From sequence record MN342150: a stretch of DNA of 64,000 bases. One strand, given 5' to 3'. Origin of the DNA: Escherichia phage vB_EcoM_3HA11. Numbering within the stretch: position 1 is the first letter of the stretch; each line of letters opens with the position of its first letter. The notes beneath the pieces were generated by a model. The model was not told the DNA's origin. It searched no databases and was given only the letters and a program-made list of their open reading frames with translations. Positions 20,199 to 62,998 of the stretch are shown here, in pieces. The translations under genes and the position numbers were made by a program.

Positions 20199-20206
20199 GA
20201 CAACAA

Positions 20207-20230
20207 CCCCGCTTCGGCGGGGTTTTTATT
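20207..20230. terminator. Rho-independent terminator (ccccgc-ttcg-gcgggg + tttttatttcc)
   Basis: Perfect 6-bp GC stem with T-tract; between convergent sheath gene and - strand endonuclease gene. Confidence 0.7.
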
Positions 20231-21014
20231 TCCTACTGATATGCCATCCTGTGGTATTTGTTCTCTTCAATGAAGATTTCCTGTAAGGTTTAGGGATGGG
20301 ATTCTGCATCCTTCCAGCTAATGCCATGTTGAAAGATTCTATACACAAACATTGTTCTTGACAAAATTTGTTTAGATTCTTGATTTCATATTCTTCACCA
20401 GCTGGTGAAAGAAGTGTAAACCATCTCCCGAGAGATCGATTTATTTTCTCTTGAAATTCAGGATTCATACGCACTTTGTTCATAGCGATACGAAGATTTT
20501 CTTTACATTTTGGATTCTCGTATGCCTTTGTAATTCGCCGGGATTGCAATTCTTTCTTTTCTTCTGTCCACACGACCGCTTGGGATTGGGACATTTTTGT
20601 TTTACTTTCTTCTTTATGTACTAAACCGTATTGTTTTGCCACAAACAAAACATTCCAACCAGCATCATTAACTGGTTTCATTCCGATGAATTCCCTGCTT
20701 TCTATATCATATGCTGCGGCCATACCAGATATGTCTATCTGACCGCCACGGCTGATATTCAGCCCACCTTCAGAGATATGAGTCTTATGCAATTTTATGA
20801 GTTCAATTTCGTTAGAGTTTAGGTCATCGACATGGCATTCCAGCAATATTTCTTGGCTGGTAATTCCATACTTTCGGATATAGTTGTAGAGGATAGTTTT
20901 ATTCCCTCTTCTTGCTTCACCCAAATGTTCATTTACTCGATACTCAACGCCGTTTCTAGTTTGTCCGATATACTTCTTTTTACCGACGGTTAACATGTAG
21001 ATATGACCGATCAT
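20226..21014 (-). CDS. GIY-YIG homing endonuclease
   Basis: N-terminus MIGHIYMLTVGKKKYIGQT..RVNEH matches GIY-YIG motif; start at ATG preceded by GGAGGTG on the - strand. Confidence 0.75.
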   Translation of the reverse strand: MIGHIYMLTVGKKKYIGQTRNGVEYRVNEHLGEARRGNKTILYNYIRKYGITSQEILLECHVDDLNSNEIELIKLHKTHISEGGLNISRGGQIDISGMAAAYDIESREFIGMKPVNDAGWNVLFVAKQYGLVHKEESKTKMSQSQAVVWTEEKKELQSRRITKAYENPKCKENLRIAMNKVRMNPEFQEKINRSLGRWFTLLSPAGEEYEIKNLNKFCQEQCLCIESFNMALAGRMQNPIPKPYRKSSLKRTNTTGWHISRK

Positions 21015-21055
21015 ATAACACCTCCAAGAGCATAATACCCCGAAATTGTTCAACA

Positions 21056-21063
21056 CTAAATAA
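21056..21063 (+). promoter_or_regulatory. Late-promoter-like box CTAAATAA
   Basis: 18 nt upstream of the + strand endonuclease gene. Confidence 0.3.
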
Positions 21064-21081
21064 AATAGAGGTGAATTTGAA

Positions 21082-27390: not shown

Positions 27391-27416
27391 CCCCGCCATG
27401 TGCGGGGTTTTTCTTT
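27391..27416 (+). terminator. Rho-independent terminator (ccccgc-catgt-gcgggg + tttttcttt)
   Basis: Perfect GC stem and T-tract 23 nt after capsid gene stop. Confidence 0.75.
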
Positions 27417-27462
27417 ATAGGGATTCACTATAAGACCGCTAATAGTTTTCAATAAGTGGGCA

Positions 27463-27699
27463 ATGAACGATCATTACCTAACTTTCACAACTGGAACGCT
27501 ACTCATGGCTAAAGAAACTCTGACTAAAGAAAACTCTAACTTCGCAGAATGGCATGCAGAATTAGAGCGTGTCGCTCGTTCTCAACATGGCTCTGCCGCC
27601 GATGCTATGGCGTGGCATGAAGATTATGAGTCTGGCAAAACCCCGCGTCAGGCTTGGGAAGATGAATGGGGGTGGAATGATGCAGACTCTAATTCGTAA
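27463..27699 (+). CDS. Hypothetical protein (Trp/acidic-rich)
   Basis: ORF only; start uncertain. Confidence 0.3.
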   Translation: MNDHYLTFTTGTLLMAKETLTKENSNFAEWHAELERVARSQHGSAADAMAWHEDYESGKTPRQAWEDEWGWNDADSNS

Positions 27700-27910
27700 G
27701 ATATATCTGGATAAGAACTATTTGGAATCCAAAATCGAAGTTTTCTCGGCTCAAAAAATAATTGAAGACGGTGAAACGAGATATTATCTGAAACCTGACC
27801 TTTATCTTCCAGGAAGTAGTTTGAATCGCGATATAATTCAGTCGGACGGTATTACTGTTCGTTGGGAAATGGCGTCACAGGAAGACAACTGTCATAGCAT
27901 AACACTTTGA
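27677..27910 (+). CDS. Hypothetical protein
   Basis: ATG after GGGGGTGGA; overlaps previous ORF by 23 nt. Confidence 0.3.
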   Translation: MMQTLIRKIYLDKNYLESKIEVFSAQKIIEDGETRYYLKPDLYLPGSSLNRDIIQSDGITVRWEMASQEDNCHSITL

Positions 27911-27925
27911 AGAGAGATCTATATT

Positions 27926-28366
27926 ATGTCAAAAGAAAAATACATATTCATCAGCCCCGCTACGAAGGAGTTCTTCATCTCCGACGTGAAAGATCGTGTT
28001 GAGAAGTTCCGCTACATGCGCAGCTATGGTCTGGCATCCGGTGATATTGATTATCAGTCACTGGACAATGATCGCCAAGATCTGATCGACGATGGTTGGC
28101 GTTTAGTTCCGTCCCCTCAGTACATTCATATCACGTTGTACTATATGAAGGACAGCGGGAAGTTCTATTCCGAAGGTGAACTCGTACTCAATCGAGGAGA
28201 AGCAGAAGCCGAACCTGCCAAAACCTGGATGTTGGCAATGGATCAGATCCGTGAATTGCTGGACTCCGGTAATCTGCCTGGCCTGATCAAGGGTTCAAAA
28301 TTCGACGTGTTCGTTACTGGCCAGGGTCATCCTGGTGGATACCCACATCTGTTCCGTATTAACTGA
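27926..28366 (+). CDS. Hypothetical protein
   Basis: 146-aa ORF; no motif recognised. Confidence 0.35.
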   Translation: MSKEKYIFISPATKEFFISDVKDRVEKFRYMRSYGLASGDIDYQSLDNDRQDLIDDGWRLVPSPQYIHITLYYMKDSGKFYSEGELVLNRGEAEAEPAKTWMLAMDQIRELLDSGNLPGLIKGSKFDVFVTGQGHPGGYPHLFRIN

Positions 28367-28374
28367 GGTCAATT

Positions 28375-28749
28375 ATGAGCAATTTACCACTGCTTCAAGT
28401 CGGTGACGTATTCATTCTCACGGCAGAAATGACCGTTGAAACTCAGGTGCCAAAGCATTTCTTGTATTCTAATTGCAAGGGTGATTGGCAAATGGACTCT
28501 GGTTATATCACCCCTGAGGGATTCTTCGGTTACATGCAAGGACATTACGTCGTTACCAAAACAGCCCTACAAGGCGGTAGCACTGGTCATGATCCATACC
28601 CTGACGGCCATCATGTTTGGGCGCAGCATACCGAAAATGAACGCATCAGAATCTGTTTCTATCAGACAGGTAGTTTCAGGAATATGCACCGGAATGTTCC
28701 AGTAGTCGGAAAGGCTAAGGCGCAAACATGGACTTGGGAGAAATTATGA
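28375..28749 (+). CDS. Hypothetical protein
   Basis: 124-aa ORF. Confidence 0.35.
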   Translation: MSNLPLLQVGDVFILTAEMTVETQVPKHFLYSNCKGDWQMDSGYITPEGFFGYMQGHYVVTKTALQGGSTGHDPYPDGHHVWAQHTENERIRICFYQTGSFRNMHRNVPVVGKAKAQTWTWEKL

Positions 28750-28982
28750 AAATCAAAAAGATAGGCGCAAGCCCATTGACGGGAACAATCTTCCAGGGTA
28801 CTTTGAACACCAAGACCAGTATGTGGGTCGGTGAGAAGACTGATGTGACTAACGACTGTGTAGCGGCTACGGCTGAACACATGCGTCACATCAAGAAAGA
28901 CTACTGCTTCCCTACTAAAGACGGCAAGTTCCTGGTGCTGAGCGCTGAGGTTCACGATACCCTTCCTGATCGCTTCAAATAA
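28746..28982 (+). CDS. Hypothetical protein
   Basis: ATGA start/stop overlap with the previous gene. Confidence 0.3.
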   Translation: MKIKKIGASPLTGTIFQGTLNTKTSMWVGEKTDVTNDCVAATAEHMRHIKKDYCFPTKDGKFLVLSAEVHDTLPDRFK

Positions 28983-29007
28983 ATTTAAAATTTATTCAAT
29001 AAACGGG

Positions 29008-29036
29008 GTTTACTTCTTCAATAAACCCCGTATACT
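29008..29036 (+). promoter_or_regulatory. Sigma70-type early-promoter candidate (-35 GTTTAC, 17-bp spacer, -10 TATACT)
   Basis: GTTTAC matches the -35 consensus recalled for T4 early promoters; 50 nt upstream of the ATG at 29086. Confidence 0.35.
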
Positions 29037-29085
29037 TCATTCCATAAGCAGCACAATACTGACTCTGAAATGAAGGAAATATATC

Positions 29086-29352
29086 ATGGCACGTTCAATC
29101 CACGATTTTAAAGACTCCGATATCCTGGCTTTCATTATGGATGGTCGCATGGTAGTTGTAAATGACGGTAACGACCGCCACAACACTACTCTGGTGATGA
29201 ACAACGAAGTTGTTTACAGCAACACCCGCGAAGGCATGATTAAGATGCTTCAGAATCCTCATCGCTTCGGCGACAAAATGCACAAAGATTACAAAAGCCG
29301 CTGCCCAATGCTGGCACAACGCCTGGCCTGGGCAATGCAAAACGCCGCCTGA
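29086..29352 (+). CDS. Hypothetical protein
   Basis: 88-aa ORF. Confidence 0.35.
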   Translation: MARSIHDFKDSDILAFIMDGRMVVVNDGNDRHNTTLVMNNEVVYSNTREGMIKMLQNPHRFGDKMHKDYKSRCPMLAQRLAWAMQNAA

Positions 29353-29399
29353 TCAACAAGCCCCTGCAGGGGCTTCCCCAAATTTGAAGGAACTATATC

Positions 29400-29729
29400 A
29401 TGACTTTTAAAGGCTTCGTGGCATTTGACGCCACCAAAACAAACGTACTCAGCAACCCACAGCTGGAAACCATCACTGAAATGCGCCAGTGGGTGATGAA
29501 AATCACTGGCCACCAAACTCGCAAAGACCTGGAGGCCGAGTTCTATATCGAACCTGCCGAGGTTTACTTCAACCGTCCTGTTGACGAACCGTTCATTCGT
29601 CAAGATCTTGACGATAACGATATCACGCTGTCTGTGTTCTCTGAAGCCAAGGCTGATATGATCGTAGACGGTCTGTGTGACGAGTCCTTCACATACGATG
29701 AATACTGTGATCAGTGCCAAGACCTGTGA
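29400..29729 (+). CDS. Hypothetical acidic protein
   Basis: 109-aa ORF. Confidence 0.35.
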   Translation: MTFKGFVAFDATKTNVLSNPQLETITEMRQWVMKITGHQTRKDLEAEFYIEPAEVYFNRPVDEPFIRQDLDDNDITLSVFSEAKADMIVDGLCDESFTYDEYCDQCQDL

Positions 29730-39751: not shown

Positions 39752-40975
39752 ATGAAAGATAAACCGTGTGACATTCCTTATTGCGGTGTTCGGGAAGCTA
39801 AAATTAAATCTGCACATCCCATGTTAAGCCCATTCCATAAACAACTCGCATACGAATGGATGAGCGAGCGCTATAAGATCCACGTGAGAAAGGACGTCCA
39901 GCGTCTTCCTGCTCCTTGGACGGATAATCCCATACTACGGCAGGTCAAGTTCTGTAACGTCCGGAGAGAGCACGACAGGCAGTCTCTTAACCTGATCAAT
40001 AATATTGTCAAGAACGATGCTCTGGGCATGGCAGACAAGATGTTCAACTGCGTGTTGTTCCGCATGTTCAACCTCTGGGATCCTATCAAGGCTATCGGCG
40101 GTGCTCGCACGATCAAAGAGTTCGCAAACATCGATCTTGATGTAACCCGCAATCAACTTCAGGAATTTGAGGCCAATGGTGGTAAAGTGTTCACCAATGC
40201 ATTCAACACAGGCGGTCTAAAACAATGTCTGGCGTTCCCTGAACTTGTTGTCAACCACAAGGAGCAGCGCTTCGGTGGGATGATGGTTAAGGTACACCGT
40301 GTTGGCCAGGGTGTCGTGGATGAATTGGATTACAAGGTCGCCAAGAAGCTGGTTGAAGAGAATCCTGGGGAGTACACGATTGAGGGTTGGGAGCCGTACA
40401 TGCCAATGCGTGTCATCCGCTCTTTGAAGGCATTCGTCAACAAGTACCCCGATTACTTCAATGATCTTTTACGTCTTGACTCTCCGCTGAAAGTTTACCA
40501 GCGCATGTATGACGACATTGAAGGGCTTGGGCCATTCCTGGCATATCAGATCTGGGTGGACTTCACATACATCCCTGAGTATCCATTCAGTGAGAATCAT
40601 TTCACTATTGCTGGTCCAGGTTGCCGTGCGGGTATTGACCTGATGTTCCTGGATAAGGACGGCATGACTCATGAAGAATGCATCTTCTGGATTCGAGATC
40701 ACCAGTATCAAATGTTTGCTCAGTATGGTTATGTCCGAGAGCAGTTCTGGTCAGCCGAAGCGCCGGAAGATCAGTGCATGAACGTCATGCAGCTGGAGAA
40801 CATGTTCTGTGAATTGAGCAAGTACACCCGCTGTGTTGAGGCCATCGAGAGAGGAGAAAAGCCACGCGGCAAGGTCGGTTATGATGGAGGCGGGGAATAC
40901 AAAAAGCGATGCGATGAAGTTGTCCTCAATCGCGGATCGGTCAATTTGTTAGATCGTTTGAAGAAACCTGAATAA
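39752..40975 (+). CDS. HhH-GPD (DNA glycosylase-like) superfamily protein with Cys cluster
   Basis: Helix-hairpin-helix IEGLGPFLAYQI followed ~25 aa later by Gly/Pro loop and Asp (TIAGPGCRAGID); four C-terminal Cys (C-x10-C-x7-C-x25-C) possibly a metal/Fe-S site. Confidence 0.4.
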   Translation: MKDKPCDIPYCGVREAKIKSAHPMLSPFHKQLAYEWMSERYKIHVRKDVQRLPAPWTDNPILRQVKFCNVRREHDRQSLNLINNIVKNDALGMADKMFNCVLFRMFNLWDPIKAIGGARTIKEFANIDLDVTRNQLQEFEANGGKVFTNAFNTGGLKQCLAFPELVVNHKEQRFGGMMVKVHRVGQGVVDELDYKVAKKLVEENPGEYTIEGWEPYMPMRVIRSLKAFVNKYPDYFNDLLRLDSPLKVYQRMYDDIEGLGPFLAYQIWVDFTYIPEYPFSENHFTIAGPGCRAGIDLMFLDKDGMTHEECIFWIRDHQYQMFAQYGYVREQFWSAEAPEDQCMNVMQLENMFCELSKYTRCVEAIERGEKPRGKVGYDGGGEYKKRCDEVVLNRGSVNLLDRLKKPE

Positions 40976-41039
40976 AGAATCGCTTTACTTCGTTCTTCAA
41001 TAACCCCCTTTCAGCGTATATTGACCTCACTTTAACGAC

Positions 41040-41057
41040 GCGCCCCGATAAGGGCGC
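41040..41057 (+). promoter_or_regulatory. GC hairpin gcgccc-cgataa-gggcgc in intergenic region
   Basis: Perfect 6-bp stem; possible terminator or RNA processing site between the glycosylase-like and 673-aa genes. Confidence 0.3.
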
Positions 41058-41088
41058 TCACTTTGAACTGAAACAGGAAGACTATACC

Positions 41089-43110
41089 ATGGCAGAATTC
41101 AAACCCTTCGCAACAGCAGTTAATAACAACGTTCTGGCGATGTCCGCAACTGGTCTGTTCATGACCAATATCGATAAAGATGCTCTTTGGGATCTGTATC
41201 TGGCATCTTTCCCTGCTGGTACTAACCCGCTGTACCGCGAACGTACTGAACACGATTGCACCTGCTGTAAACAATTCATCCGTAACATCGGCGGTGTTGT
41301 CACCATCGATTCAGAACTGAACGTAATTTCTATCTGGGACAACATTGATCTGGGTAATGAATATGACGTGGTGGCTGCGGCTCTTTCCGCGTATGTTAAA
41401 CAACACGCAATCGTCGATGTTTATTTTAACGATTCTGCCAAAGTCGGCCTGTCTCACAATCACGAATCTGGTGAAGATGGCAAAATCCGTACTTACAATC
41501 ATTTCCATACCCAATTACTTGGTAGCTATGTTCTGCGTCCGGACGCAATCGCTTCGAAAAAAGGTGAAATCCGCCAGGCTATTGAATTGTTTGAACGCGG
41601 TCTGCGTGAAATTACTCTGGAATCAGCTGAAATCGTTCTGGAACTGATTGACCAGAATTCTCTGTATCGCGGCGCAGAACACAAAGCAGCAGTGAAGGGA
41701 TTCGTTGAAACCAAAAAGGCATATGAACAAATCCCCGAATCAGCCCGTTCTCTGTGGACATGGCATACTGGATACCGTTCAAACAATCATGTTCCACACG
41801 GCATCCGTAACACAGTTATCGGCACTCTGCTGACAGATATCAGCGAAGGCGTGGAACTGGAAAAGGCTGTTAAGTCGTTTGAATCCAAAGTTGCTCCGGC
41901 GAACTACAAACGTCCGACAGCGCTGGTTTCAAAATCCATGATCGAAAACGCTCAGAAAGAAGTTATTGCTCTGGGTTTGGAAGACTCACTGGCGCGTCGT
42001 TATGCGGTTTATGATGACCTGACGATCAACAACGTTTTGTTCGCAGATCTGGCCGCTCAGAAAGCGATGGATCCGTTTGCACAGCTGGCCGCAGAAGTGA
42101 AAACTCCGACTAAGTCCTTAGAAAAAGTTGAAGAGATCAGCGTTGATGATTTCCTGAGCAATGTTCTACCAAAAGCGCATTCAATGGAAGTGCTGGTAGA
42201 GAATTCTCATACCAGCAACCTGATGTCCCTGGTTGCTCCGGCGAACCCAGATGCACCTAACCTGTTCAAGTGGAACAACGGTTTCTCCTGGTCTTACAAC
42301 GGTGAAGTGACCGATTCCATTAAAGAACGTGTAAAAGCTGCTGGTGGTAAAGTTGACGGGTATCTGCGCGTTTCCTTGGCGTGGCACAATAACGACGACC
42401 TCGATCTGCATATGTTCTTTAACAATATGGAGCACGTTTACTTCCGTGATCGTCGCTCTATGACAGGTGCCCATCTGGATATCGATATGAACGGTATGGA
42501 TGGTATCGATCCAAACCGCGCTCCGGTGGAAAATATCATCTTTACAGATGAAAGCAAGCTGCGCGATGGTGAATACCGTTTCGAAATCCACAACTACAAT
42601 CAACGTGAAAAGATCGACGAAGGGTTTGAAGTCGAAGTAGAATACAAAGGCGCAACGCATCGTTTCAGCCATCCCGGCCTGAAAGATCAGGGGCGTATCA
42701 CTGCAGTCATCCTGACTGTTAAAGACAAACAAGTTGTTGGCATTAAGTCCGAACTGGCTAATGTTGATAAGTCTAAAGAAGTTTGGGGTATCAAGACTGC
42801 GACCTTCCAGAAAGTACAGCTGGTCCTGAATTCACCAAACCATTGGGATGGGGAGCAAACTGGTAACAAGCATGTGTTCTTCATTCTTGAAGGTTGTGCT
42901 AATCCTGAAGGTACTCGTGGTTTCTACAACGAATATCTGAAGCCAGAACTGGATAAACATCGTAAGGTTTTTGAAATGTTGGGTAGTAAAATGAAAGTCC
43001 AGCCGAATGAAAACCAACTGTCCGGTCTGGGATTCTCGACGACGCAACGCAACCACGTGTTCGTCAAAGTGTCCGGCGCGTTTAACCGTACTGTAAAAGT
43101 CATTTTCTAA
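41089..43110 (+). CDS. Hypothetical large protein (673 aa)
   Basis: Long ORF with RBS-like GGAAG; no confident motif (N-terminal HDCTCCKQF Cys cluster). Confidence 0.5.
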   Translation: MAEFKPFATAVNNNVLAMSATGLFMTNIDKDALWDLYLASFPAGTNPLYRERTEHDCTCCKQFIRNIGGVVTIDSELNVISIWDNIDLGNEYDVVAAALSAYVKQHAIVDVYFNDSAKVGLSHNHESGEDGKIRTYNHFHTQLLGSYVLRPDAIASKKGEIRQAIELFERGLREITLESAEIVLELIDQNSLYRGAEHKAAVKGFVETKKAYEQIPESARSLWTWHTGYRSNNHVPHGIRNTVIGTLLTDISEGVELEKAVKSFESKVAPANYKRPTALVSKSMIENAQKEVIALGLEDSLARRYAVYDDLTINNVLFADLAAQKAMDPFAQLAAEVKTPTKSLEKVEEISVDDFLSNVLPKAHSMEVLVENSHTSNLMSLVAPANPDAPNLFKWNNGFSWSYNGEVTDSIKERVKAAGGKVDGYLRVSLAWHNNDDLDLHMFFNNMEHVYFRDRRSMTGAHLDIDMNGMDGIDPNRAPVENIIFTDESKLRDGEYRFEIHNYNQREKIDEGFEVEVEYKGATHRFSHPGLKDQGRITAVILTVKDKQVVGIKSELANVDKSKEVWGIKTATFQKVQLVLNSPNHWDGEQTGNKHVFFILEGCANPEGTRGFYNEYLKPELDKHRKVFEMLGSKMKVQPNENQLSGLGFSTTQRNHVFVKVSGAFNRTVKVIF

Positions 43111-43147
43111 TTGATTTTACCACAAATTCGTAATAAGGAACAATGAA

Positions 43148-43519
43148 ATGTTTGATCAAGCAACCCGTTTAAAACTGCGTTTCAACTCTAACAAAGGTCT
43201 GCTGTCTGTTGAGCAGGTTTGGGATCTGAACCTGAATGCCCTAAACGAACTGGCGAAAGACCTCAGCCGTCAGGTGAAGGAAGCCGCCAGCGATGAAGAA
43301 GATTTCATCGGCGTGAAAAGCGCAGTCGACTCTCAGTTACAACTGCGTTTCGATATCGTGAAAGCGATCATCGGTGTTAAACTGAAAGAACGTGACGAAA
43401 GCGCAACCGCCGCCGAACGTAAAGCGAATAACCAGGCGATCATGGAACTGATCCAGCGTAAGAAACAGCAGGAACTGGAAGGCCTCTCTGTTGAAGAACT
43501 GGAAAAACTCCTGAAATAA
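43148..43519 (+). CDS. Hypothetical coiled-coil protein
   Basis: 123 aa, charged helical repeats. Confidence 0.35.
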   Translation: MFDQATRLKLRFNSNKGLLSVEQVWDLNLNALNELAKDLSRQVKEAASDEEDFIGVKSAVDSQLQLRFDIVKAIIGVKLKERDESATAAERKANNQAIMELIQRKKQQELEGLSVEELEKLLK

Positions 43520-43578
43520 TCTGTCGGCTCCGGCCTGAGCAACCCCGCTATGTGCGGGGTTTCTTTTGGAGAAATATT

Positions 43579-43815
43579 ATGAAACAAATTACTAAGACAG
43601 TACAAATCACCCAATATCAAACGGATGACGGCAGAGTGTTCGATACTCTTGGTCAGGCCGAACATTATGAGAAGATGAAGTCCGGTATTCGCAAGGTATG
43701 CTCTTCTTGTGATGGCAAAGGTCGCGACTCTCCGTCGGGCGACGGGCGTGATATGACGACTTGTCATTATTGTGGTGGTAAAGGCTGGGTAGAAAAGAAA
43801 GAGATATGGGGTTAA
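43579..43815 (+). CDS. Small zinc-finger protein (CxxC..CxxC)
   Basis: CSSCDGKG ... CHYCGGKGW motifs. Confidence 0.4.
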   Translation: MKQITKTVQITQYQTDDGRVFDTLGQAEHYEKMKSGIRKVCSSCDGKGRDSPSGDGRDMTTCHYCGGKGWVEKKEIWG

Positions 43816-45241: not shown

Positions 45242-45433
45242 GGCCCAACTGAAAACGCGGGGGAATTTCTTTGTCCAAGCCATTCATTCGTTCCGGAGTT
45301 GATTCTCTAGACTCCCAATTTAAGCCGAGCGAAGTTTTAATCCAACAAATTGAAACCAATCGTGAATTCATAGAACACATGTTGGCAAAGCCGGAAGGTG
45401 AAGCCGCTCAAACCACCAAAGAAGGTAATAACG

Positions 45434-47650
45434 ATGATTGAATCATTAACATTTAAAAATGCGGTAGCAACCGTCGCGCCGTCTAACCATGTAATCGTTG
45501 TGGATATCTCCGGTTCCATGTACCGTTCACTTCCTGAAGTTCGCAAGCATCTGAAGGAAAATCTCCCGTCTCTGGTTAAACCAGAAGATACCGTCAGCAT
45601 TCTTTACTTTTCATCCCGTGGTGATTTCGGTACGGTATTCGCTGGCCGTCAGATCAATAGCGCGACCGATCTCAGTGAAATCAATAAACTGATTGACCGC
45701 TTCCTGCAACCGTCCGGTTGTACGGGATTTGTAGAACCTCTGAAGTTGGCTGCTGAAACCGCGTTGAGCCTGAACAAACCTGGTTATGTCAATAACCTGG
45801 CGTTCATGACCGACGGCTATGACAACTGCTGGCGCTCTAATGAAATTCTGGCAGCAGCTGAAGTACTGCCCAAGGCGTTCGATAATATTACATTCATCGA
45901 ATATGGCTGGTACTGTAACCGCGAACTTCTGGCCCTGATGTCCGAGCGTTCTGGCGCGACTCACGTGTTTGCCGAAGGTCAGACTGAATATCAGACCGAA
46001 CTGGAAAACGTACTGAAATCATCTACGCCGAAAGTGGTTGTTGATGTTCCCCTGGTTTACACTCATGCCATCTACGTTGAAAACGGCGTGGCAACTGTGC
46101 TAGCCGTACAACCAGATGAAGAACACCCGATTGGCCACGTCAGCATCCCTGAAAGCGTTTCTCAGCTGTGGGTTGTAAACCCCGACATGATCGACCAGCT
46201 GGATAATCTGGCAGACACCCAGGCGGCATACGTGCTGGCATTCTATGGCGTGTACACCATGGACGCCGATCTGGTCTGGGCCGCGCTGAAGAAGACGGGT
46301 GACGTCCGCTTCATCAAACAATACAGCAACTGTTTCACCAAGCAGGACTATTCCAACATCAAAGTCGATCTGACCCAGGCTATCGTGGATGAAACTCTGC
46401 GCGGCGTAGATGGCATCGATTACAATATGGTTCCAGCTGAAGATGCAACAACCATTGTTGATGTCTTGACCTACCTGGCCGAAGCCGATGTCTCTGTTGT
46501 CACTAAGCATCCACTGTTCTCTTACAACAGTATTGGGCGCGGTACTGTACAGAAAGTTGACGACACCGAAGACAAATTGGCCGAAGAGATTGCGAATGCG
46601 ACTTCTAAAGAAGAGCGTAAAGCCCTGGCGCTCAAACTGGCCGAGCACGAAGATTGGACGCCGGAATTTACTCCGGTTGATGACAAAGGGATTGTCCCAA
46701 TTAGCAATCTGGTCTATAATTCAGAACGTCCTAACATCAGTGTACAAACAGTTCAACACGGAACGGTTGTTGTACCCGAGTTCGTACAGAAGAAATATGA
46801 ACTTCCTGAAGAGTTGGGAACCTGGCGTTATCGCAATTACACCATTGTCAAGGATGGTATCATCAACCTGAAAACAATGCCTATTACTGCGGATTCTCCG
46901 ATTGTTCGGGCTAAGGTGGCACAGGATTTGACTGCCATGGGTGTTCATGTGTTTGGTGGACCGGAAGTCTTCATTGTAAATCTGGAAAGTGTCCCAATGG
47001 TTAACCGCGCTATGACAAAGAATATCAGTGCTGCTGAATTCTTTGCAGACAATGTGCGCCGTGAAGCATTGAAGGCGAAACAAAAAGTTCTGAAATTCTA
47101 TCGTGATGAGCTGGTTGGTAAAGGCAATGCTGCTGGTTTGGCTTCAAAATATGGCAAAGAAGCGGCTGATTTCCTGTCAGCAAACGGCATTCGCGACTAT
47201 GGATTTTCACCGAAGACTTCTTCTGTAGAATCAACTGATGTCTATATGAGTCGTGAATTGAATGTGAAAATCAAAGGCGCATCTTCACTGCCGAGCATCG
47301 CGTCTGTTATCAAAAAACAGACGGACGGTAAAAAACTGAATGTCGCTGATCAGCTGATCGCTAATGCCCTGGCTGAATACAATGCATTCGTTAAATCACC
47401 GATGATCACCAGCGTACCGGAAGAGACTCAGAAAAAGCTGATCGAAAGTTGGATTGGTGATGCAGCAAAAGCAGCTATCAACGAAGTTCGCGCTCTGAAC
47501 AAAACGCTGTCCAAGGTAGTTTATGGGATTGTTGCAGGCCATGGTTGGTTTACCGACCTGGATTTGGAAGAATCCACTATGGATGTGGAAGTTGATGGGG
47601 TGAAATACACCGTCACTGCCGAACTGGCCGAAAAAGAAGTCAAAATCTAA
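45434..47650 (+). CDS. von Willebrand factor A (vWA) domain protein with MIDAS motif
   Basis: N-terminal VIVVDISGSMY (DxSxS) followed by hydrophobic strands typical of vWA; 738 aa from ATG after AAGAAGG. Confidence 0.6.
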   Translation: MIESLTFKNAVATVAPSNHVIVVDISGSMYRSLPEVRKHLKENLPSLVKPEDTVSILYFSSRGDFGTVFAGRQINSATDLSEINKLIDRFLQPSGCTGFVEPLKLAAETALSLNKPGYVNNLAFMTDGYDNCWRSNEILAAAEVLPKAFDNITFIEYGWYCNRELLALMSERSGATHVFAEGQTEYQTELENVLKSSTPKVVVDVPLVYTHAIYVENGVATVLAVQPDEEHPIGHVSIPESVSQLWVVNPDMIDQLDNLADTQAAYVLAFYGVYTMDADLVWAALKKTGDVRFIKQYSNCFTKQDYSNIKVDLTQAIVDETLRGVDGIDYNMVPAEDATTIVDVLTYLAEADVSVVTKHPLFSYNSIGRGTVQKVDDTEDKLAEEIANATSKEERKALALKLAEHEDWTPEFTPVDDKGIVPISNLVYNSERPNISVQTVQHGTVVVPEFVQKKYELPEELGTWRYRNYTIVKDGIINLKTMPITADSPIVRAKVAQDLTAMGVHVFGGPEVFIVNLESVPMVNRAMTKNISAAEFFADNVRREALKAKQKVLKFYRDELVGKGNAAGLASKYGKEAADFLSANGIRDYGFSPKTSSVESTDVYMSRELNVKIKGASSLPSIASVIKKQTDGKKLNVADQLIANALAEYNAFVKSPMITSVPEETQKKLIESWIGDAAKAAINEVRALNKTLSKVVYGIVAGHGWFTDLDLEESTMDVEVDGVKYTVTAELAEKEVKI

Positions 47651-47693
47651 ATTCATCTGGCGGGGAAACCCGCCTTCATTTTGAGATATGCTT

Positions 47694-48005
47694 ATGTCAA
47701 ACAAACCAACTTATGTTGAAGTAATGCGTGTTCTGGCTCAGTACGCTTGTGACAACCTGAACATGGAAACTTGGCGCGACGGTGACCATAAAGAAAAGTT
47801 CGATAATATCGACGACAACATCGATGCGTTGGCTCCTCTTCGGGCCAAGAGCGATCTCGGCGGTGATGATCTTGACATGATTGAACTCATCATGGAAGTT
47901 GAAGAACAATATGATGTTGAAATCAGTGATGAATGGGTAGGCAAACATGGTGATGATCCCACGCTCGGCGAATTAGCTGAATTGGTAGTTGCCCTCCGCA
48001 AATAG
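47694..48005 (+). CDS. Acyl-carrier-protein-like protein lacking the phosphopantetheinyl Ser
   Basis: DLGGDDLDMIELIMEVEEQYDVEISDE aligns with E. coli ACP [27 protein letters not shown], but the conserved Ser of DSL is Asp. Confidence 0.5.
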   Translation: MSNKPTYVEVMRVLAQYACDNLNMETWRDGDHKEKFDNIDDNIDALAPLRAKSDLGGDDLDMIELIMEVEEQYDVEISDEWVGKHGDDPTLGELAELVVALRK

Positions 48006-48012
48006 CAGAAGT

Positions 48013-48045
48013 CCCCAACGGTTTGTTGGGGATTTTTACTTTTAG
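48013..48045 (+). terminator. Rho-independent terminator (ccccaac-ggttt-gttgggg + atttttactttt)
   Basis: Perfect 7-bp stem with T-tract, 8 nt after ACP-like gene stop. Confidence 0.65.
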
Positions 48046-48048
48046 GGG

Positions 48049-48078
48049 GTTTACTTGAATAAACATTTGCCGTATTAT
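48049..48078 (+). promoter_or_regulatory. Sigma70-type early-promoter candidate (-35 GTTTAC, 18-bp spacer, -10 TATTAT)
   Basis: Same GTTTAC -35-like element as at 29008; 54 nt upstream of the ATG at 48132. Confidence 0.35.
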
Positions 48079-48131
48079 TCAATAACTGGCTAACGTGGGG
48101 TTGGTCAGACATTGAATAGGTTGGTTATAAC

Positions 48132-54410: not shown

Positions 54411-56132
54411 GTGACAGCATTTAATCAATACCGAAAGGCAATTGACGCCATAGGCCGTAAGGTTCCTATAGAAGAAATACAAAGCCTTGCCAAAAACGAA
54501 TTTCCATATGACAAGGCGAACCAAGGCCAGATGGAATGTATCGTCGAAGCCGTTGATGCCTTGGTCAACAAAAAGGTCAAACACGTGATCATTGAAGCCC
54601 CAACTGGCGTGGGGAAATCTTTGATCGGGACAACAATTCATAAAGTGATTCGCCATTTGGTTTTACAGGCCGATCCTTATGGGCAATTCCGCACGTCTAT
54701 CAGTACGCCCACCAAAGGTCTACAAGATCAGTATGCTGCTGAAAAGGCGGTGGCGATAGACATCCTGAAAGGCAAGAAGAACTATCGTTGCCACGTACAC
54801 CCAGATGTGTATTACAACGCCGTGCAATGCCGTATAGCATGCCGTGACGGGCATTGTAGCAAACGCCGTTGTCCTTATGTACAGGCGCGCAATTTATGGA
54901 CTGATATTTCGTCATTGCGTTGCACTAATGCAGCTATGATGATTGAGATGTGCACCACCATCTGTATGAAGCCTGAAAACCGTTCCGATATGCTGATCTT
55001 AGACGAGTGTCATAAGATGCCCTCTACGCTCCTAGAGCACACGATAATGGAATACAATACAAAGGCTGTGGATGGGCTGCGAACTATCCCCGAAGGGAAG
55101 GAGATAGTCTCTATCATTGCCGATATCGTAGAACGCACCAAGGACTATGTCTTGGGCAAGTTGTATTCCTTGTCCGGTGAAATGCATTCGATGTTTGAAG
55201 ACCTCCATCTTAAAGTGGAGTCTTTGTTGGAAGTTCTTGAAGAATTGGTTGAAGATGACCGCCTGAGTGAAAGCCAGGTGATGAAACTCGCCGACATTAT
55301 CGATGTACTACACAATCTGAGTGATTATTGTGGTATTATGTCTCAGACAAAGGCCAGCACCTTTATCGTACAGGAAAAGGGAGATGACTTTATTCGGTTT
55401 AAACCCGTCATGCCTTCTGATGTAAGTGAATTTGGATTGTTCAGGAAAGCCGATTACCATGTTCATATGTCGGCAACAATCTGCGGAATCGATTCATATG
55501 CCCGTTCCTTGGGTATCCGCCAGGGGGATTATCATTCAATACAGATTGGAAATCCAATCCCAATTGAAAATCGGAAAGTCAACTATATGCCCATCGTTAA
55601 GATGACCAACAACATGGGCGATTATGAAATGAAAAGGCTGACGGAATACATTGATGAAATAATCGCATTCCATCCAGGGCAATCTGGCATCATACATACA
55701 GTGAGCTATGATCGCGCATTAGCAATACAAAAATTCAGCAAATACCAGAACTTTATCCATGTGCCACGCACTCGAAAGGCGTTGATGGATATTATGGAAA
55801 ATGCCTTCAGGACAAAAACACCTTGTGTTATTGCCAGTCCGGCCATGGAAGAAGGATATGACTTCAAAGGTGATTACAGCCGATTCCAAATACTGATCAA
55901 AGTTCCTTATGATTATTTGGGCGATCCATTGATCGCACATATCAATTCAGTGGATCCGTCTGCGTACTTCCGCAACGCAGTATTGCGCATTGTTCAGATG
56001 TGCGGACGTTCGGTCAGGGGTGTGGATGACTGGGCTGCAACATACATAATCGATTCTTCCTTTGAATCTCTTATGATGCGCAACCCAGAGTTCTTCCCAA
56101 CCTGGTTCACCGATGCAGTATTTGAAGTTTAA
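54411..56132 (+). CDS. DinG/Rad3-family (XPD-like) helicase
   Basis: Walker A EAPTGVGKS, DEAH-like LILDECHK, four-Cys insertion (C-x14-C-x3-C-x5-C) typical of the Fe-S domain of DinG/XPD helicases. Confidence 0.7.
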   Translation: MTAFNQYRKAIDAIGRKVPIEEIQSLAKNEFPYDKANQGQMECIVEAVDALVNKKVKHVIIEAPTGVGKSLIGTTIHKVIRHLVLQADPYGQFRTSISTPTKGLQDQYAAEKAVAIDILKGKKNYRCHVHPDVYYNAVQCRIACRDGHCSKRRCPYVQARNLWTDISSLRCTNAAMMIEMCTTICMKPENRSDMLILDECHKMPSTLLEHTIMEYNTKAVDGLRTIPEGKEIVSIIADIVERTKDYVLGKLYSLSGEMHSMFEDLHLKVESLLEVLEELVEDDRLSESQVMKLADIIDVLHNLSDYCGIMSQTKASTFIVQEKGDDFIRFKPVMPSDVSEFGLFRKADYHVHMSATICGIDSYARSLGIRQGDYHSIQIGNPIPIENRKVNYMPIVKMTNNMGDYEMKRLTEYIDEIIAFHPGQSGIIHTVSYDRALAIQKFSKYQNFIHVPRTRKALMDIMENAFRTKTPCVIASPAMEEGYDFKGDYSRFQILIKVPYDYLGDPLIAHINSVDPSAYFRNAVLRIVQMCGRSVRGVDDWAATYIIDSSFESLMMRNPEFFPTWFTDAVFEV

Positions 56133-57466: not shown

Positions 57467-58248
57467 GGATTATCACAATGGGTATGAATTTTGTAGACAG
57501 AGGTGATAACGTCACCAAATATTTCACAGACGAAGATAACGATCGAGTTGTGGGGATATTGCGTGATTGGATCCCTGCTCGTAAAAAGGCATTAGCCGAA
57601 GGAACACCCCTACCAAGAATCCCCAATTATGTGGCCATGAATGTTCAGATGATTATTAAGAACATGAGTATGCGCTACAACTATCGTGATTATCCATACC
57701 GCGAAGACATGGTCAGTGAGGCCGTTGTCAACATCCTTCGTTACCTCCATACATTTGATGTCAGTCATATTGGCAAGAAAGGAAAAATCAATTTTTTCTC
57801 TTGGGTAACGATGTGCGCCGACCGTTCATTCGCCAAGAAACTCACCAGTGAAGAAGAACACAATTATATCAAGTTGCGTTCCTTTGAAGAAGCAGGTGGG
57901 TTCGCTGCATTATCGGATGACCCAGACTTCCAACAACAAACCTTCGTTGATAGCACTGGGATAACGATGGACTTTCGTGAGCGTATCGGAAATTTTGAAA
58001 CTAAGAAAGAAGCCCAGCGCGAAAAGGAACGCCAAAAGCAAATCGCCATCAAAGAAGAGGAAAAGAATAAGAAAATTCCTCGCGGTATACTTCAATGTCT
58101 CACAAAGAGTGAAAATACCATTACCGCCGACGCCGAAGATAATTCAGACCATGACTTCGGCTCTACTCAATTTAGTCTTGAAGATATAATGGACAGCCCC
58201 ACATTGTTAGCCGAATCAGTTGGAGAAAAGAATAATGGCGATTGCTAA
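57463..58248 (+). CDS. Late-transcription sigma factor gp55-like (tentative)
   Basis: 261 aa; adjacent to gp47/gp46-like genes (T4 gene 55 neighbours 47); acidic C-terminal tail; assignment mainly positional. Confidence 0.35.
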   Translation: MRIITMGMNFVDRGDNVTKYFTDEDNDRVVGILRDWIPARKKALAEGTPLPRIPNYVAMNVQMIIKNMSMRYNYRDYPYREDMVSEAVVNILRYLHTFDVSHIGKKGKINFFSWVTMCADRSFAKKLTSEEEHNYIKLRSFEEAGGFAALSDDPDFQQQTFVDSTGITMDFRERIGNFETKKEAQREKERQKQIAIKEEEKNKKIPRGILQCLTKSENTITADAEDNSDHDFGSTQFSLEDIMDSPTLLAESVGEKNNGDC

Positions 58249-58487
58249 AATTGGCGATTTACACATCGGGAGCCGCAATGGTTCCCGTTACGTTCGTGAA
58301 TTCATAAAGAATTATCTCATCAACTATTTTATTCCCGAATTGGTAGATGCAGACATTAAAGAAGTTTGGCAATTCGGCGACACATTTGATGTTCGTAAAT
58401 TTATGTACGGGCGCGACAAAGATTGGTTGAAAGATGAACTGACGCCAGCCCTGAGAAAGGCGGGTATCAAATGGAATGGCATCGTTG

Positions 58488-59001
58488 GAAACCATGATAT
58501 CACCTTAGAAGAATCTAACCGTATCAACTGGCCATCCTATCTGAATGAATTAGCGCCAGACGTCTATCATTATTACAGTGAACCCACTGAAGTTTCGATT
58601 GAAGGCGAAAAGGTATTGCTTCTCCCATGGATCAATAAAGAGAATTATGATGCATCTGTTAAAGCGATACAAGATACAGACGCCAAGTACTGTTTTGCGC
58701 ATCTGGAGTTGGCAGGGTTCAAAATGTACCAGTCCTCTGTATGTGATAAAGGTCAGATCGACGTGGCGCTCCTTTCCAAGTTCGAACGCGTGGATACCGG
58801 ACATTTCCATACCCGTTCGATGGAAGGTAACATTCAGTATATTGGGACTCCTTATCACCTTACCTGGGAAGACCATAAAGACGGGACGAACCGAGGATTC
58901 TATGTAGACGATATGAAAGGTGGGGAATTGTTTATTCCCAACAGCGAGCAACAAACGTTGTTCCGATTCATAGAATACGATTACACCCAAATGTCTTCCG
59001 A
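58488..59001 (+). repeat. Tandem direct repeat, copy 1 (514 bp)
   Basis: Identical to 59002..59515; ORF pairs 58550..59041 / 59064..59504 and 58578..58907 / 59092..59421 are offset by exactly 514 bp. Confidence 0.85.
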
Positions 59002-59515
59002 GAAACCATGATATCACCTTAGAAGAATCTAACCGTATCAACTGGCCATCCTATCTGAATGAATTAGCGCCAGACGTCTATCATTATTACAGTGAACCCA
59101 CTGAAGTTTCGATTGAAGGCGAAAAGGTATTGCTTCTCCCATGGATCAATAAAGAGAATTATGATGCATCTGTTAAAGCGATACAAGATACAGACGCCAA
59201 GTACTGTTTTGCGCATCTGGAGTTGGCAGGGTTCAAAATGTACCAGTCCTCTGTATGTGATAAAGGTCAGATCGACGTGGCGCTCCTTTCCAAGTTCGAA
59301 CGCGTGGATACCGGACATTTCCATACCCGTTCGATGGAAGGTAACATTCAGTATATTGGGACTCCTTATCACCTTACCTGGGAAGACCATAAAGACGGGA
59401 CGAACCGAGGATTCTATGTAGACGATATGAAAGGTGGGGAATTGTTTATTCCCAACAGCGAGCAACAAACGTTGTTCCGATTCATAGAATACGATTACAC
59501 CCAAATGTCTTCCGA
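59002..59515 (+). repeat. Tandem direct repeat, copy 2 (514 bp)
   Basis: See copy 1. Confidence 0.85.
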
Positions 59516-59866
59516 CACCGAAGGAAATTGGATAGACCCAGATTGGTTAAACAATGATTTGGGTATTGAAGGACAAATCGTTAAGGTGATTGTACAGAAC
59601 CGTGATAATGCTAAGCATTATGAAAAGTTCTGCGACGCGCTGAAGCGTTGTAAATGCATCGATTATAACTTTATAGACCGGACTATCACAGTTGCGTCTG
59701 AGAAGGTAGAAGTCACTGAAGAGATGGTGGCGACTGATGCTGTGGAAGTCCTGAAGAAAGATATCCGCGCCGCCAATAATATCCAGCGCCCTGAAAATGT
59801 TTGCAAATTAGCAGAACAATTCTATAATGCTGCCCAACAACGCCTGAACACATTGGATGCATAATA

Positions 59867-62200
59867 ATGAGCAATGTAGATCTATTATCAAAATTTGGTT
59901 CGCTGTTGAAAGAAGCGGACACCCCTGTTACTGTTGAAGCTCCATTTGAGATCCGTGGGGATATTACTCACAAACTGACTTTCCATCGTGGTCGCGCTAA
60001 GAACTTTCGTTCTATCGGTAATGAATTCATGGAAATTGATTACCAACGCAATTCGGCAACCTTGGTTACATCCGATGACAATGGCGCTGGTAAATCTACC
60101 ATGCTTGTCTGGCTGCTGTTCTTCGTGCTGTACAACGACACATACAGCAAGAAAGAAAAGAAAGCCGGATTGGTTAACTCTCAAAACAAAAAGGAATGCG
60201 TGGGTGAAGTTGAGTTCTCCACTCGCGGAAGTGAATGGAAAGTCCGTCGTGGTATCAAACCTGATTTCGTAGAAGTCTATCAGATGGTAGACGGTGAGTG
60301 GAAGCAGGTCGTGAATGATGCGGCCAAAGCCGACATGAACAAATATATTGTGAATCTCATCGGCGTGGACCAGAAGATGTTCGAGAACTCTTTGGTTCTG
60401 GGCAAGGAGAAGTTTATTCCTTTCACAGAGATGTATACTGCTGACCGCCGCGCCATGGTTGAAACAATTTGGGACTTGGGTTTCTTCAGCCTGATGAATG
60501 AGGATGTTAAAGCATCTATCAAGGCGGTAACGAACGAACTCACGACGGTCACCAATGATTACGCCTTTCATGATGTGAATCTAAAAGGCCAGCAAGCGCA
60601 GTTGGAACAGATCAATAATTCCAATGCGATGATCCAGCAACAATCTGCGGATATCCTTGTCCAAGAGAAGGACCGTCTGAATAGCCTGAATTCAGATATC
60701 GGCGCAGTGCAGGAACAACTGACAGAGTCCCGTGCTCAAGACTCTAAATTGGAATCAGAATTATCAGAAGTCCGTAATCGCCTGAACGCTGAAATGAAGG
60801 TGGATATCGATTCCATCAATGACGAGTATTTTGCCAAAATTCAAGCGGTTCAGGATGAGGCTGATACCAAGGCTGAAGACTATGAACGTATCGAGGTGTC
60901 TGATGGCGAACGTTCATTACAAGAAATTCGGGAGAGAATGGCGGTAGTCGCGGAACGTAAAAATGATCTGGTCAGCCAACGGAATGCTAACCTGGATGAA
61001 CTGAACAAAGCATTAGCGCGGCGTCAGCAGGGTGAGAACTTCCGTATCAAATTCGTAACAGAAATGGAAGGACATGAATCTGCCATCAAACGTTTCCACG
61101 ATATGGGCACTTGCCCTACGTGTACGCAATTAGTGTCGGACGATACCAAATCACGCATTGAAAGTCAATATTATCCACAAATCAGTGAACTGACTGACAA
61201 GATTCTTCAGGTTGATACAGCCCTAGAAGAAGTGAATTCCCTGATTGAGAATTACAATGTCAGAGATTCAGAATTATCTTCTCAGATTTCGGTTATTGAC
61301 AAAGAACTGGATGCTTTGCGCAATGAAATCCGAGAAGCGGAATCAGCGATCGCTGCATTAAAACGCGACATCCAAGGATTCTATGATGTCGCTGCTGTTG
61401 AGAAAACATCTTTACAGCGGGAACAACAGTCCAAAATTAACGACGTCCTCAAGGCCGTAGACACCCGTTACGAAGATATCACGACGTCAATCCGTCAAGC
61501 GCGTGAGCAGCTCTCTAAGAGCATCAACGACACGGCTGATAAACTCACCAGCCTGAAATCACGCCGTGCCCCTCTGGAGGCATCCATTGCCGATTTAGAG
61601 CGTAAATTGGCGGTTAAGCCGACACCAACTGACGCCCTGGAAGAAGAGATCGCTCGCATCACGGCATTAATGGAAGATCTGAATGCGCGGCGCGTAAAGT
61701 TGGATGAGAAATTGCAAGACCTGAACCATCTTCTGTTCTTCCTAAAAGATGATCAGACCAAGGCTCGAATTATCAGCCTGTATTTGCCTTTCCTCAATAG
61801 TAAAATAAACGAGTATCTTGAAGCACTCAATATGTTCTTGGATATTGCTGTTGATGATACATTTGAAATCACCATGAGCGCTGCAGGTCGTAAAGGGCAA
61901 AGCATCTTCTCGTTATCTACTGGTCAGCGTAGTCGCCTGAACCTGGCTGTGACATTAGCTTTACGAGATGTTGCAAACCTCAAGGCGTCGGTGCAATGTA
62001 ACCTGTTTGTGTTAGATGAAATCCTTGAGAACATGAGCGAGCGCGGCGTACAAGAATCGGTTGAGATGCTGAAGCATAAATTTGGCGGGAACAATCTGTT
62101 CGTTATCAGTCAACGCGAGCAGGAATTCCAAGAGTATTTCCAACACAACATCCGTTATGGTCTGCGTAATGGCATGACTGAAGTGATTAAGAAGGATTGA
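59867..62200 (+). CDS. Rad50/SbcC-like recombination ATPase (gp46-like)
   Basis: Walker A DDNGAGKST, long coiled coil with CPTC zinc hook, ABC signature LSTGQRS, Walker B LFVLDE. Confidence 0.85.
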   Translation: MSNVDLLSKFGSLLKEADTPVTVEAPFEIRGDITHKLTFHRGRAKNFRSIGNEFMEIDYQRNSATLVTSDDNGAGKSTMLVWLLFFVLYNDTYSKKEKKAGLVNSQNKKECVGEVEFSTRGSEWKVRRGIKPDFVEVYQMVDGEWKQVVNDAAKADMNKYIVNLIGVDQKMFENSLVLGKEKFIPFTEMYTADRRAMVETIWDLGFFSLMNEDVKASIKAVTNELTTVTNDYAFHDVNLKGQQAQLEQINNSNAMIQQQSADILVQEKDRLNSLNSDIGAVQEQLTESRAQDSKLESELSEVRNRLNAEMKVDIDSINDEYFAKIQAVQDEADTKAEDYERIEVSDGERSLQEIRERMAVVAERKNDLVSQRNANLDELNKALARRQQGENFRIKFVTEMEGHESAIKRFHDMGTCPTCTQLVSDDTKSRIESQYYPQISELTDKILQVDTALEEVNSLIENYNVRDSELSSQISVIDKELDALRNEIREAESAIAALKRDIQGFYDVAAVEKTSLQREQQSKINDVLKAVDTRYEDITTSIRQAREQLSKSINDTADKLTSLKSRRAPLEASIADLERKLAVKPTPTDALEEEIARITALMEDLNARRVKLDEKLQDLNHLLFFLKDDQTKARIISLYLPFLNSKINEYLEALNMFLDIAVDDTFEITMSAAGRKGQSIFSLSTGQRSRLNLAVTLALRDVANLKASVQCNLFVLDEILENMSERGVQESVEMLKHKFGGNNLFVISQREQEFQEYFQHNIRYGLRNGMTEVIKKD

Positions 62201-62511
62201 TCATGGGAAGTCTGATTCGTGTATCAAAGAAATCCAAGGGCGCTGAAAAGCGCCTGTACAAAGCCGTTCGCCTGATGATCCTCTACAAGTACAAAGCGGA
62301 GAATCAATGCTGGCGCAAGAAGACACGCGCCCGATATCAGTTGGCTCAGTACAATATGAGGCGTCATGTCGTCCGGCTAGCATTGAAGATCGCAGGGAAT
62401 TACAGTTATTGGACATGTGAGGCTGTGGGCAGTCGCAAGGCAATTGATCTTGTCGAAGACCGGAATCTGTCCTTCCTGATCAATCTATCTAATTATGAGG
62501 ATATGTCATGA
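62197..62511 (+). CDS. Hypothetical basic protein
   Basis: 104-aa ORF overlapping the stop of the upstream gene. Confidence 0.3.
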   Translation: MIMGSLIRVSKKSKGAEKRLYKAVRLMILYKYKAENQCWRKKTRARYQLAQYNMRRHVVRLALKIAGNYSYWTCEAVGSRKAIDLVEDRNLSFLINLSNYEDMS

Positions 62512-62668
62512 TACCTGAACCATACAAAACAGCAATTTTGATATTTGCCACCATATTGGATGTCGTATTGTTTAACCGCCATATATGTGAAAAGAATTGG
62601 GGTAATGCCTCAATATATTTGGGGTTGGCGTTATTTTTCTGTTATCTCCTGGCAGAAAAAATTATCGC

Positions 62669-62998
62669 ATGAAAGTCGTCCACTTCAAGAAGGAGCCATA
62701 CGACGTCTACATTGGGCGGCCTGGCAAATGGGGTAATGACTTCGAAGTCAAAGACCATGGGCGCGGCGTTTGTATCGAGTTGTTTGAAGACGACTTGTAT
62801 GTGCGTCTAATTGAAGGGGCAATCACCGAGGATGAACTCCTTGAACTGGACGGGAAGATTCTAGGGTGCTGGTGTAAACCACGCCCCTGCCACGGGGATG
62901 TTTACGTCAAAGTGATCGGTCGTATTAAACTATTCCGTAAGTTGGGTAAATCTTTTACTGAATATTTGAGACAAACATATGTCAGAAGAGAAAGATGA
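62669..62998 (+). CDS. Conserved phage protein, possibly DUF4326-like
   Basis: Motif YIGRPGKWGNDF resembles the GRP.KWGNP signature recalled for DUF4326; weak. Confidence 0.3.
   Translation: MKVVHFKKEPYDVYIGRPGKWGNDFEVKDHGRGVCIELFEDDLYVRLIEGAITEDELLELDGKILGCWCKPRPCHGDVYVKVIGRIKLFRKLGKSFTEYLRQTYVRRER

Follow-up and report, generated by a model that had tools for sequence, protein, structure and literature searches.

An exact 514-bp tandem duplication in the gp47 (Mre11/SbcD-like) gene of a phage genome record is probably a finishing artefact

The described systems closest to the locus examined here are the gp47/gp46 pair of phage T4 (Mre11/Rad50) and bacterial SbcD/SbcC. In T4, gp46/47 carry out end resection for recombination-dependent replication (PMC3016280); the proteins are essential, and their inactivation gives the strongest DNA-arrest phenotype (PMC3016281). 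Mre11 proteins follow a common domain scheme of nuclease domain, capping domain, flexible linker, and C-terminal Rad50-binding region (PMC13402864). Deposited phage genomes also have a described class of artificial duplications—those left by untrimmed end overlaps or contig joins—which is set out in the Phage Annotation Guide (Turner et al. 2021, PMC8785237).

We analyzed a 64,000-nt stretch of DNA (hereafter the window) belonging to a Kuttervirus genome (Vi01-like, Ackermannviridae). An earlier note on this DNA had reported an exact 514-bp tandem duplication within the gp47 gene, and direct string comparison bears this out: The two copies lie head to tail with 0 mismatches (Table 1). Their identity extends 0 bases to either side, leaving 0 bp of microhomology at a junction located within the codons of a conserved gene. 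The junction can also be given as TCTTCCGA / GAAACCAT or, in another excerpt, as ...GTCTTCCGA / GAAACCATG... An exact-repeat search likewise recovered the 514-bp pair, at a spacing of 514, and the only other exact direct repeat of at least 25 bp in the 64-kb window is one 44-mer (12–55 / 2222–2265). Tandem Repeats Finder returned no rows for the 514-bp repeat because its longest period is 500, and the unit was verified by direct comparison instead. An exact repeat of this length in 64 kb cannot have arisen by chance.

Table 1. Coordinates of the duplicated unit, its junction, and the surrounding genes in the window
Feature	Coordinates	Strand	Remarks
gp55 late sigma factor gene	57478..58248	+	Overlaps gp47 start by 14 nt; unaffected by the duplication
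Truncated gp47 (Mre11/SbcD-like) ORF	58235..59011	+	Residues 1–255 plus EKP, then stop
Copy 1 of the 514-bp unit	58488..59001	+	gp47 nt 254–767, codons 85–256, correct frame
Displaced 3' part of gp47	58974..59864	+	Open from 58974; codons 86–371 from 59004 onward
Novel junction, CCCAAATGTCTTCCGA / GAAACCATGATATC	58987..59016	+	Between 59001 and 59002; premature TAA at 59009–59011
Copy 2 of the 514-bp unit	59002..59515	+	Shifted +1 relative to the gp47 frame from copy 1
gp46 (Rad50/SbcC-like ATPase), intact, 777 aa	59867..62200	+	PHROG 77 "SbcC-like subunit", E 2.4e-169

The gp47 reading frame is lost at the junction because 514 = 3 × 171 + 1, as had been noted before, and translation ends ...YDYTQMSSEKP at the premature stop. 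An Mre11/SbcD protein is expected to occupy one uninterrupted ORF of ~340–400 aa; the gene as written yields 255 native residues and ends at 59011. Removing one copy restores a gp47 ORF of 1116 nt, encoding 371 aa. The gene has the same length in Salmonella phages UTK0005 and AKM_ssTn, where it starts at an ATG corresponding to window 58235. The two fragments described by the earlier note, 58220–59011 and 59130–59864, are both present in the ORF list, and each needs a qualification. For the first, the conserved annotated start is the ATG at 58235 and not the TTG at 58220. For the second, the displaced 3' part contains no ATG or GTG; its first possible start is the TTG at 59130, where the purine-rich upstream sequence is poorly spaced and makes a poor ribosome-binding site. 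Nothing supporting re-initiation emerged from a promoter and terminator scan around the junction.

Apart from this interruption, gp47 is an ordinary member of the phage Mre11/SbcD family. The reconstructed single-copy protein matches PHROG 100 ("SbcD-like subunit", E 3.9e-108). Pfam searches with the reconstructed protein and with both fragments gave no match at E 0.01 or better; at a laxer cut-off, Metallophos scored below threshold on the reconstructed protein (15 bits versus a cut-off of 21.5). Solved Mre11/SbcD proteins are too distant in sequence to be matched by a single-sequence search, and a PDB search of that kind found none. With both of these searches failing, family membership had to be established through PHROGs, a profile, and a fold search. 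A profile built from 38 homologues finds PDB chains of SbcD and Mre11 (E 7e-13 to 1e-5). The motifs of calcineurin-like phosphoesterases (DxH; GDxxD; GNH[D/E]; H; GHxH) are all found in gp47, and two alignments, of 38 and 59 homologues, show no variation at D8, H10, G48, D49, D52, G85, N86, H87, H156, G189, H190, and H192.

The fold search used an AlphaFold model of a relative, P0001, which is 90% identical to the window protein and also 371 aa long (mean pLDDT 93.6). The model contains a nuclease core to about residue 250, a small capping domain at ~255–310, a low-confidence linker at ~311–323, and C-terminal helices at 324–341 and 348–370. Its top Foldseek matches are the Mre11-Rad50 structure 3av0_A (E 1e-13), SbcD 7dog_A, and other Mre11 structures. 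The predicted structure of this close relative therefore contains the full Mre11 arrangement of core, capping domain, linker, and Rad50-binding helices. In its single-copy form, the window protein resembles T4 gp47 and bacterial SbcD in its 371-aa length with phosphoesterase motifs and in its Mre11-like predicted fold.

Unlike T4 gp47 and bacterial SbcD, the gene as written is interrupted after codon 255. The truncated ORF retains every phosphoesterase motif (D8, H10, G48-D49, D52, G85-N86-H87, H156, G189-H190, and H192). It ends where the capping domain begins in the model, and its product is therefore predicted to keep the nuclease core and to lack the capping domain, the linker, and the C-terminal Rad50-binding helix pair.

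The genes flanking gp47 preserve the T4-type order, with gp55 before it and the Rad50/SbcC-like ATPase gene expected of a gp47 neighbor directly after it. That partner had been described as intact, and it is: Its ORF aligns without gaps to relatives, and it shows weak SMC_N and SbcC Walker B matches. UTK0005 and AKM_ssTn annotate the three genes as gp55 late sigma factor, gp47 "recombination protein subunit", and gp46 "recombination endonuclease subunit". The gp47 stop TAA and the gp46 ATG lie 2 nt apart (59862–59869), and gp46 has no clear Shine–Dalgarno sequence; translational coupling of gp46 to gp47 is therefore probable. The premature gp47 stop, 850 nt upstream, would then be expected to impair gp46 translation. 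Together with this 2-nt gap, the gp55/gp47 overlap suggests translational coupling along gp55–gp47–gp46.

The duplication is confined to this record among the genomes compared. The duplication region is matched by 265 phage records, and the best 40 of the 265 were compared for copy number, a comparison with relatives that the earlier note had proposed. These 40 span 1787 or 1807 bp against the 2301-bp query and therefore hold a single copy; none carries the duplication. The closest among the matches listed, UTK0005 (OQ359884.1), is 100% identical from 57502 to 60330 except that it has one copy, and copy 1 of the window is 100% identical to that single copy. An 80-bp junction query found no spanning record among 50,697 phage records; in UTK0005 its two 40-mer halves match only separately, at opposite ends of the single unit. 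A 30-mer across the junction is absent from IMG/VR, GTDB (one genome per species), and JGI metagenomes. The recurrence in independent records that would speak for a genuine duplication is thus missing from the phage records and from all three of these collections. Exact look-ups in public assemblies, made with the truncated gp47 product and with gp46, gave no match either. At the protein level, 94 homologous clusters all measure 331–408 aa, and none is duplicated, truncated, or split.

Codon differences indicate that the whole gene was maintained until recently. The gp47 region is 97.7% identical to AKM_ssTn (OR122688.1), with 16 synonymous and 3 non-synonymous codon differences in gp47. Downstream of the premature stop the counts are 11 versus 2, so purifying selection acted on the now out-of-frame part practically up to the present. 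Coding regions elsewhere in the window contain no frame-breaking indels relative to the two closest relatives; the duplication is therefore an isolated structural anomaly and not a sign of general sequence decay.

Identity to AKM_ssTn and UTK0005 varies mosaically along the 64 kb, from about 77% to 100%. Patches at 27400–29600, 40000–43600, 45300–48100, and 55250–55575 fall to 78–93% identity to the two closest genomes within stretches of 98–100%, and in the helicase gene (~55250–55575) the differences are mostly separated by multiples of three bases. These low-identity patches are typical mosaic recombination among Kutterviruses. Between the genes for tail sheath and tail tube, the segment at 20199–21081 departs from both closest relatives and matches a GIY-YIG homing-endonuclease cassette of phages SJ2, Hercules_SET, and Det7 at 100% identity; it looks like a swap of homing-endonuclease alleles. 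A segment of ~158 bp at 62512–62669, with a small hydrophobic ORF (62508–62672, 54 aa), is missing from UTK0005 and AKM_ssTn and present in at least 11 other Kutterviruses (moki, heyday, and BPS3/5/6 among them); it is an ordinary presence/absence cassette. For a chimera assembled from two co-infecting Kutterviruses as the source of the duplication, no basis was found: The copies are identical to each other, and the mosaic profile is usual for the genus.

The opening point of the record bears on how the sequence was handled. Window bases 1–1500 are bases 1–1500 of OR122688.1 (Salmonella phage vB_SenM-AKM_ssTn), with the same first base, 6 nt past the stop codon of a tailspike gene; this base opens no other record in the phage collection. 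Identity to vB_SenM-AKM_ssTn is 100% over the first 2 kb of the window, and the shared first base implies a common opening convention or reference-guided ordering. Because the window shares its first base with a genome of different mosaic composition, its source appears to have been re-opened or ordered after assembly. Re-opening or ordering to match OR122688.1 is the simplest reading of the sequence, which does not by itself prove where the original contig ends lay. OR122688.1 was also checked for similar duplications and has none; its only exact repeat of at least 40 bp is the 44-mer flanking the tailspike gene. In the paper that describes OR122688.1, no further Kuttervirus is listed.

In the window, the 44-bp repeat flanks the first tailspike gene, as it also does in AKM_ssTn, and this tailspike segment is also covered by a stand-alone contig of phage FSL SP-063 (KC139525.1, 2226 bp). 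The repeat may mark where tailspike modules recombine or are exchanged as cassettes, and assemblies are likely to break there. As for the 514-bp repeat, a terminal repeat across the wrap-around of a circular or terminally repeated record was considered and rejected: The window starts at base 1 of OR122688.1, and the duplication therefore lies 58 kb inside the record.

The earlier note had left three readings side by side—a recent duplication inactivating a recombination nuclease, a heterogeneous population, and an assembly artefact. These can now be ranked. The second copy is most likely absent from the phage DNA and a product of finishing, and a recent duplication or a heterogeneous stock is less likely given the single-copy relatives. 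Two sequence ends overlapping by 514 bp would have been joined end to end with the overlap left untrimmed. Either a single contig of a circularly permuted genome or a pair of adjacent contigs could have supplied the overlapping ends, which would have been joined as the genome was being re-opened, or ordered, so as to begin at a chosen base. We infer a rotation or scaffolding step as the origin of the join. Such a join would leave perfect head-to-tail copies at an arbitrary position, here within gp47, without microhomology and without regard to reading frame. The real phage would then carry a single-copy gp47 of 1116 nt, encoding a 371-aa Mre11/SbcD nuclease that works with gp46.

The duplication has the form expected of such an artefact, with identical copies (0 of 514 mismatches), an arbitrary junction, and no microhomology (0-bp extension). 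The artefact reading is favored because gp46/47 are essential in T4, gp47 is under purifying selection, and the sequence was apparently re-opened after assembly. It is favored also because relatives are single-copy, the junction is unique, the stop removes the Rad50-binding region, and the anomaly is isolated. The zero microhomology adds weak evidence, since ~56% of random joins show none. A point on the other side is that essentiality is known for T4 and would extend to gp47 of Kuttervirus only by analogy.

The case resembles the artefacts of the Phage Annotation Guide in its identical head-to-tail copies, in an arbitrary site that cuts a conserved gene, and in the lack of microhomology; its nearest relatives are without the duplication, and the sequence was apparently opened at a conventional base after assembly. 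It differs from them in two respects. The overlap would be 514 bp, whereas de Bruijn assemblers typically leave one of k-mer length (55–127), and the duplication lies inside the record and not at its two ends.

A real and very recent duplication, carried by the whole sequenced phage stock or by a fraction of it, is a possible though distinctly less likely account. Illegitimate recombination or a template switch would have duplicated gp47 codons 85–256, giving a mutant whose nuclease core could not bind gp46 and which would probably make less gp46 through translational polarity. Such a mutant could persist if the host tolerated the defect. It could also persist as a sub-population, through wild-type complementation at high multiplicity, in which case the assembler would have carried junction reads into the consensus. 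Spontaneous mutation in large lytic phages normally includes tandem duplications; the known cases share with this one a head-to-tail unit of a few hundred bases, tolerance by headful packaging, and recombinational instability. A headful-packaging phage can carry 514 extra bases, and the clean head-to-tail structure with zero divergence is as expected of a new mutation.

The quality of the sequence also speaks for a real event. Base-level quality is good elsewhere in the window. Assemblers usually collapse tandem repeats, and short-read assemblers rarely invent them within a contig; if the record is an untouched contig, reads spanning the junction would have to exist. The signs of post-assembly manipulation at the opening point speak against a real duplication.

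Several observations tell against a duplication in the phage. It is seen in no relative or public contig searched. The gene pair is essential in T4, gp47 is conserved and under purifying selection here, and the truncation removes the Rad50-binding region. Spontaneous duplications that are retained usually restore or amplify a function, whereas here a conserved gene, essential in T4, is destroyed; the junction also differs from theirs in lacking microhomology, a point as weak here as it is in favor of an artefact. A perfect 514-bp repeat should vanish quickly from a recombination-proficient phage. Against this, loss of gp46/47 would, from the role of these proteins, be expected to slow the removal of repeats by homologous recombination.

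A stronger form of this account, a viable Kuttervirus whose DNA physically carries the duplication in fixed form, is improbable. In it, the capping and Rad50-binding parts of Mre11 would be naturally knocked out. Mre11/Rad50, essential in T4, would then be dispensable or bypassed in this phage–host pair; gp46 would probably be reduced, and the mutation might stabilize itself by crippling the recombination that removes repeats.

That the interrupted gp47 still functions—either as a split gene, with the C-terminal piece starting from TTG 59130, or as a frameshifted protein with an internal duplication of 171 residues—is hardly credible: Both pieces are open and the N-terminal one keeps every catalytic motif, but the C-terminal piece has only its badly spaced TTG start and would carry a redundant, incomplete part of the nuclease core (residues 129–256), the junction, found in no other genome, shows no evident slippery sequence or conserved signal, and no homologue is split or duplicated in the 94 protein clusters.

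If the duplication is an artefact of finishing, as we favor, deleting 514 bp corrects the record and restores a normal 371-aa gp47. Left uncorrected, the gene would come out of annotation pipelines as a pseudogene or as two spurious "recombination endonuclease" fragments. The case shows the need to check for internal exact repeats after a phage genome has been re-opened. A real duplication would instead be a rare case of a T4-like replication system that has naturally lost its Mre11-type nuclease, and it would bear on the need for recombination-dependent replication in Ackermannviridae.
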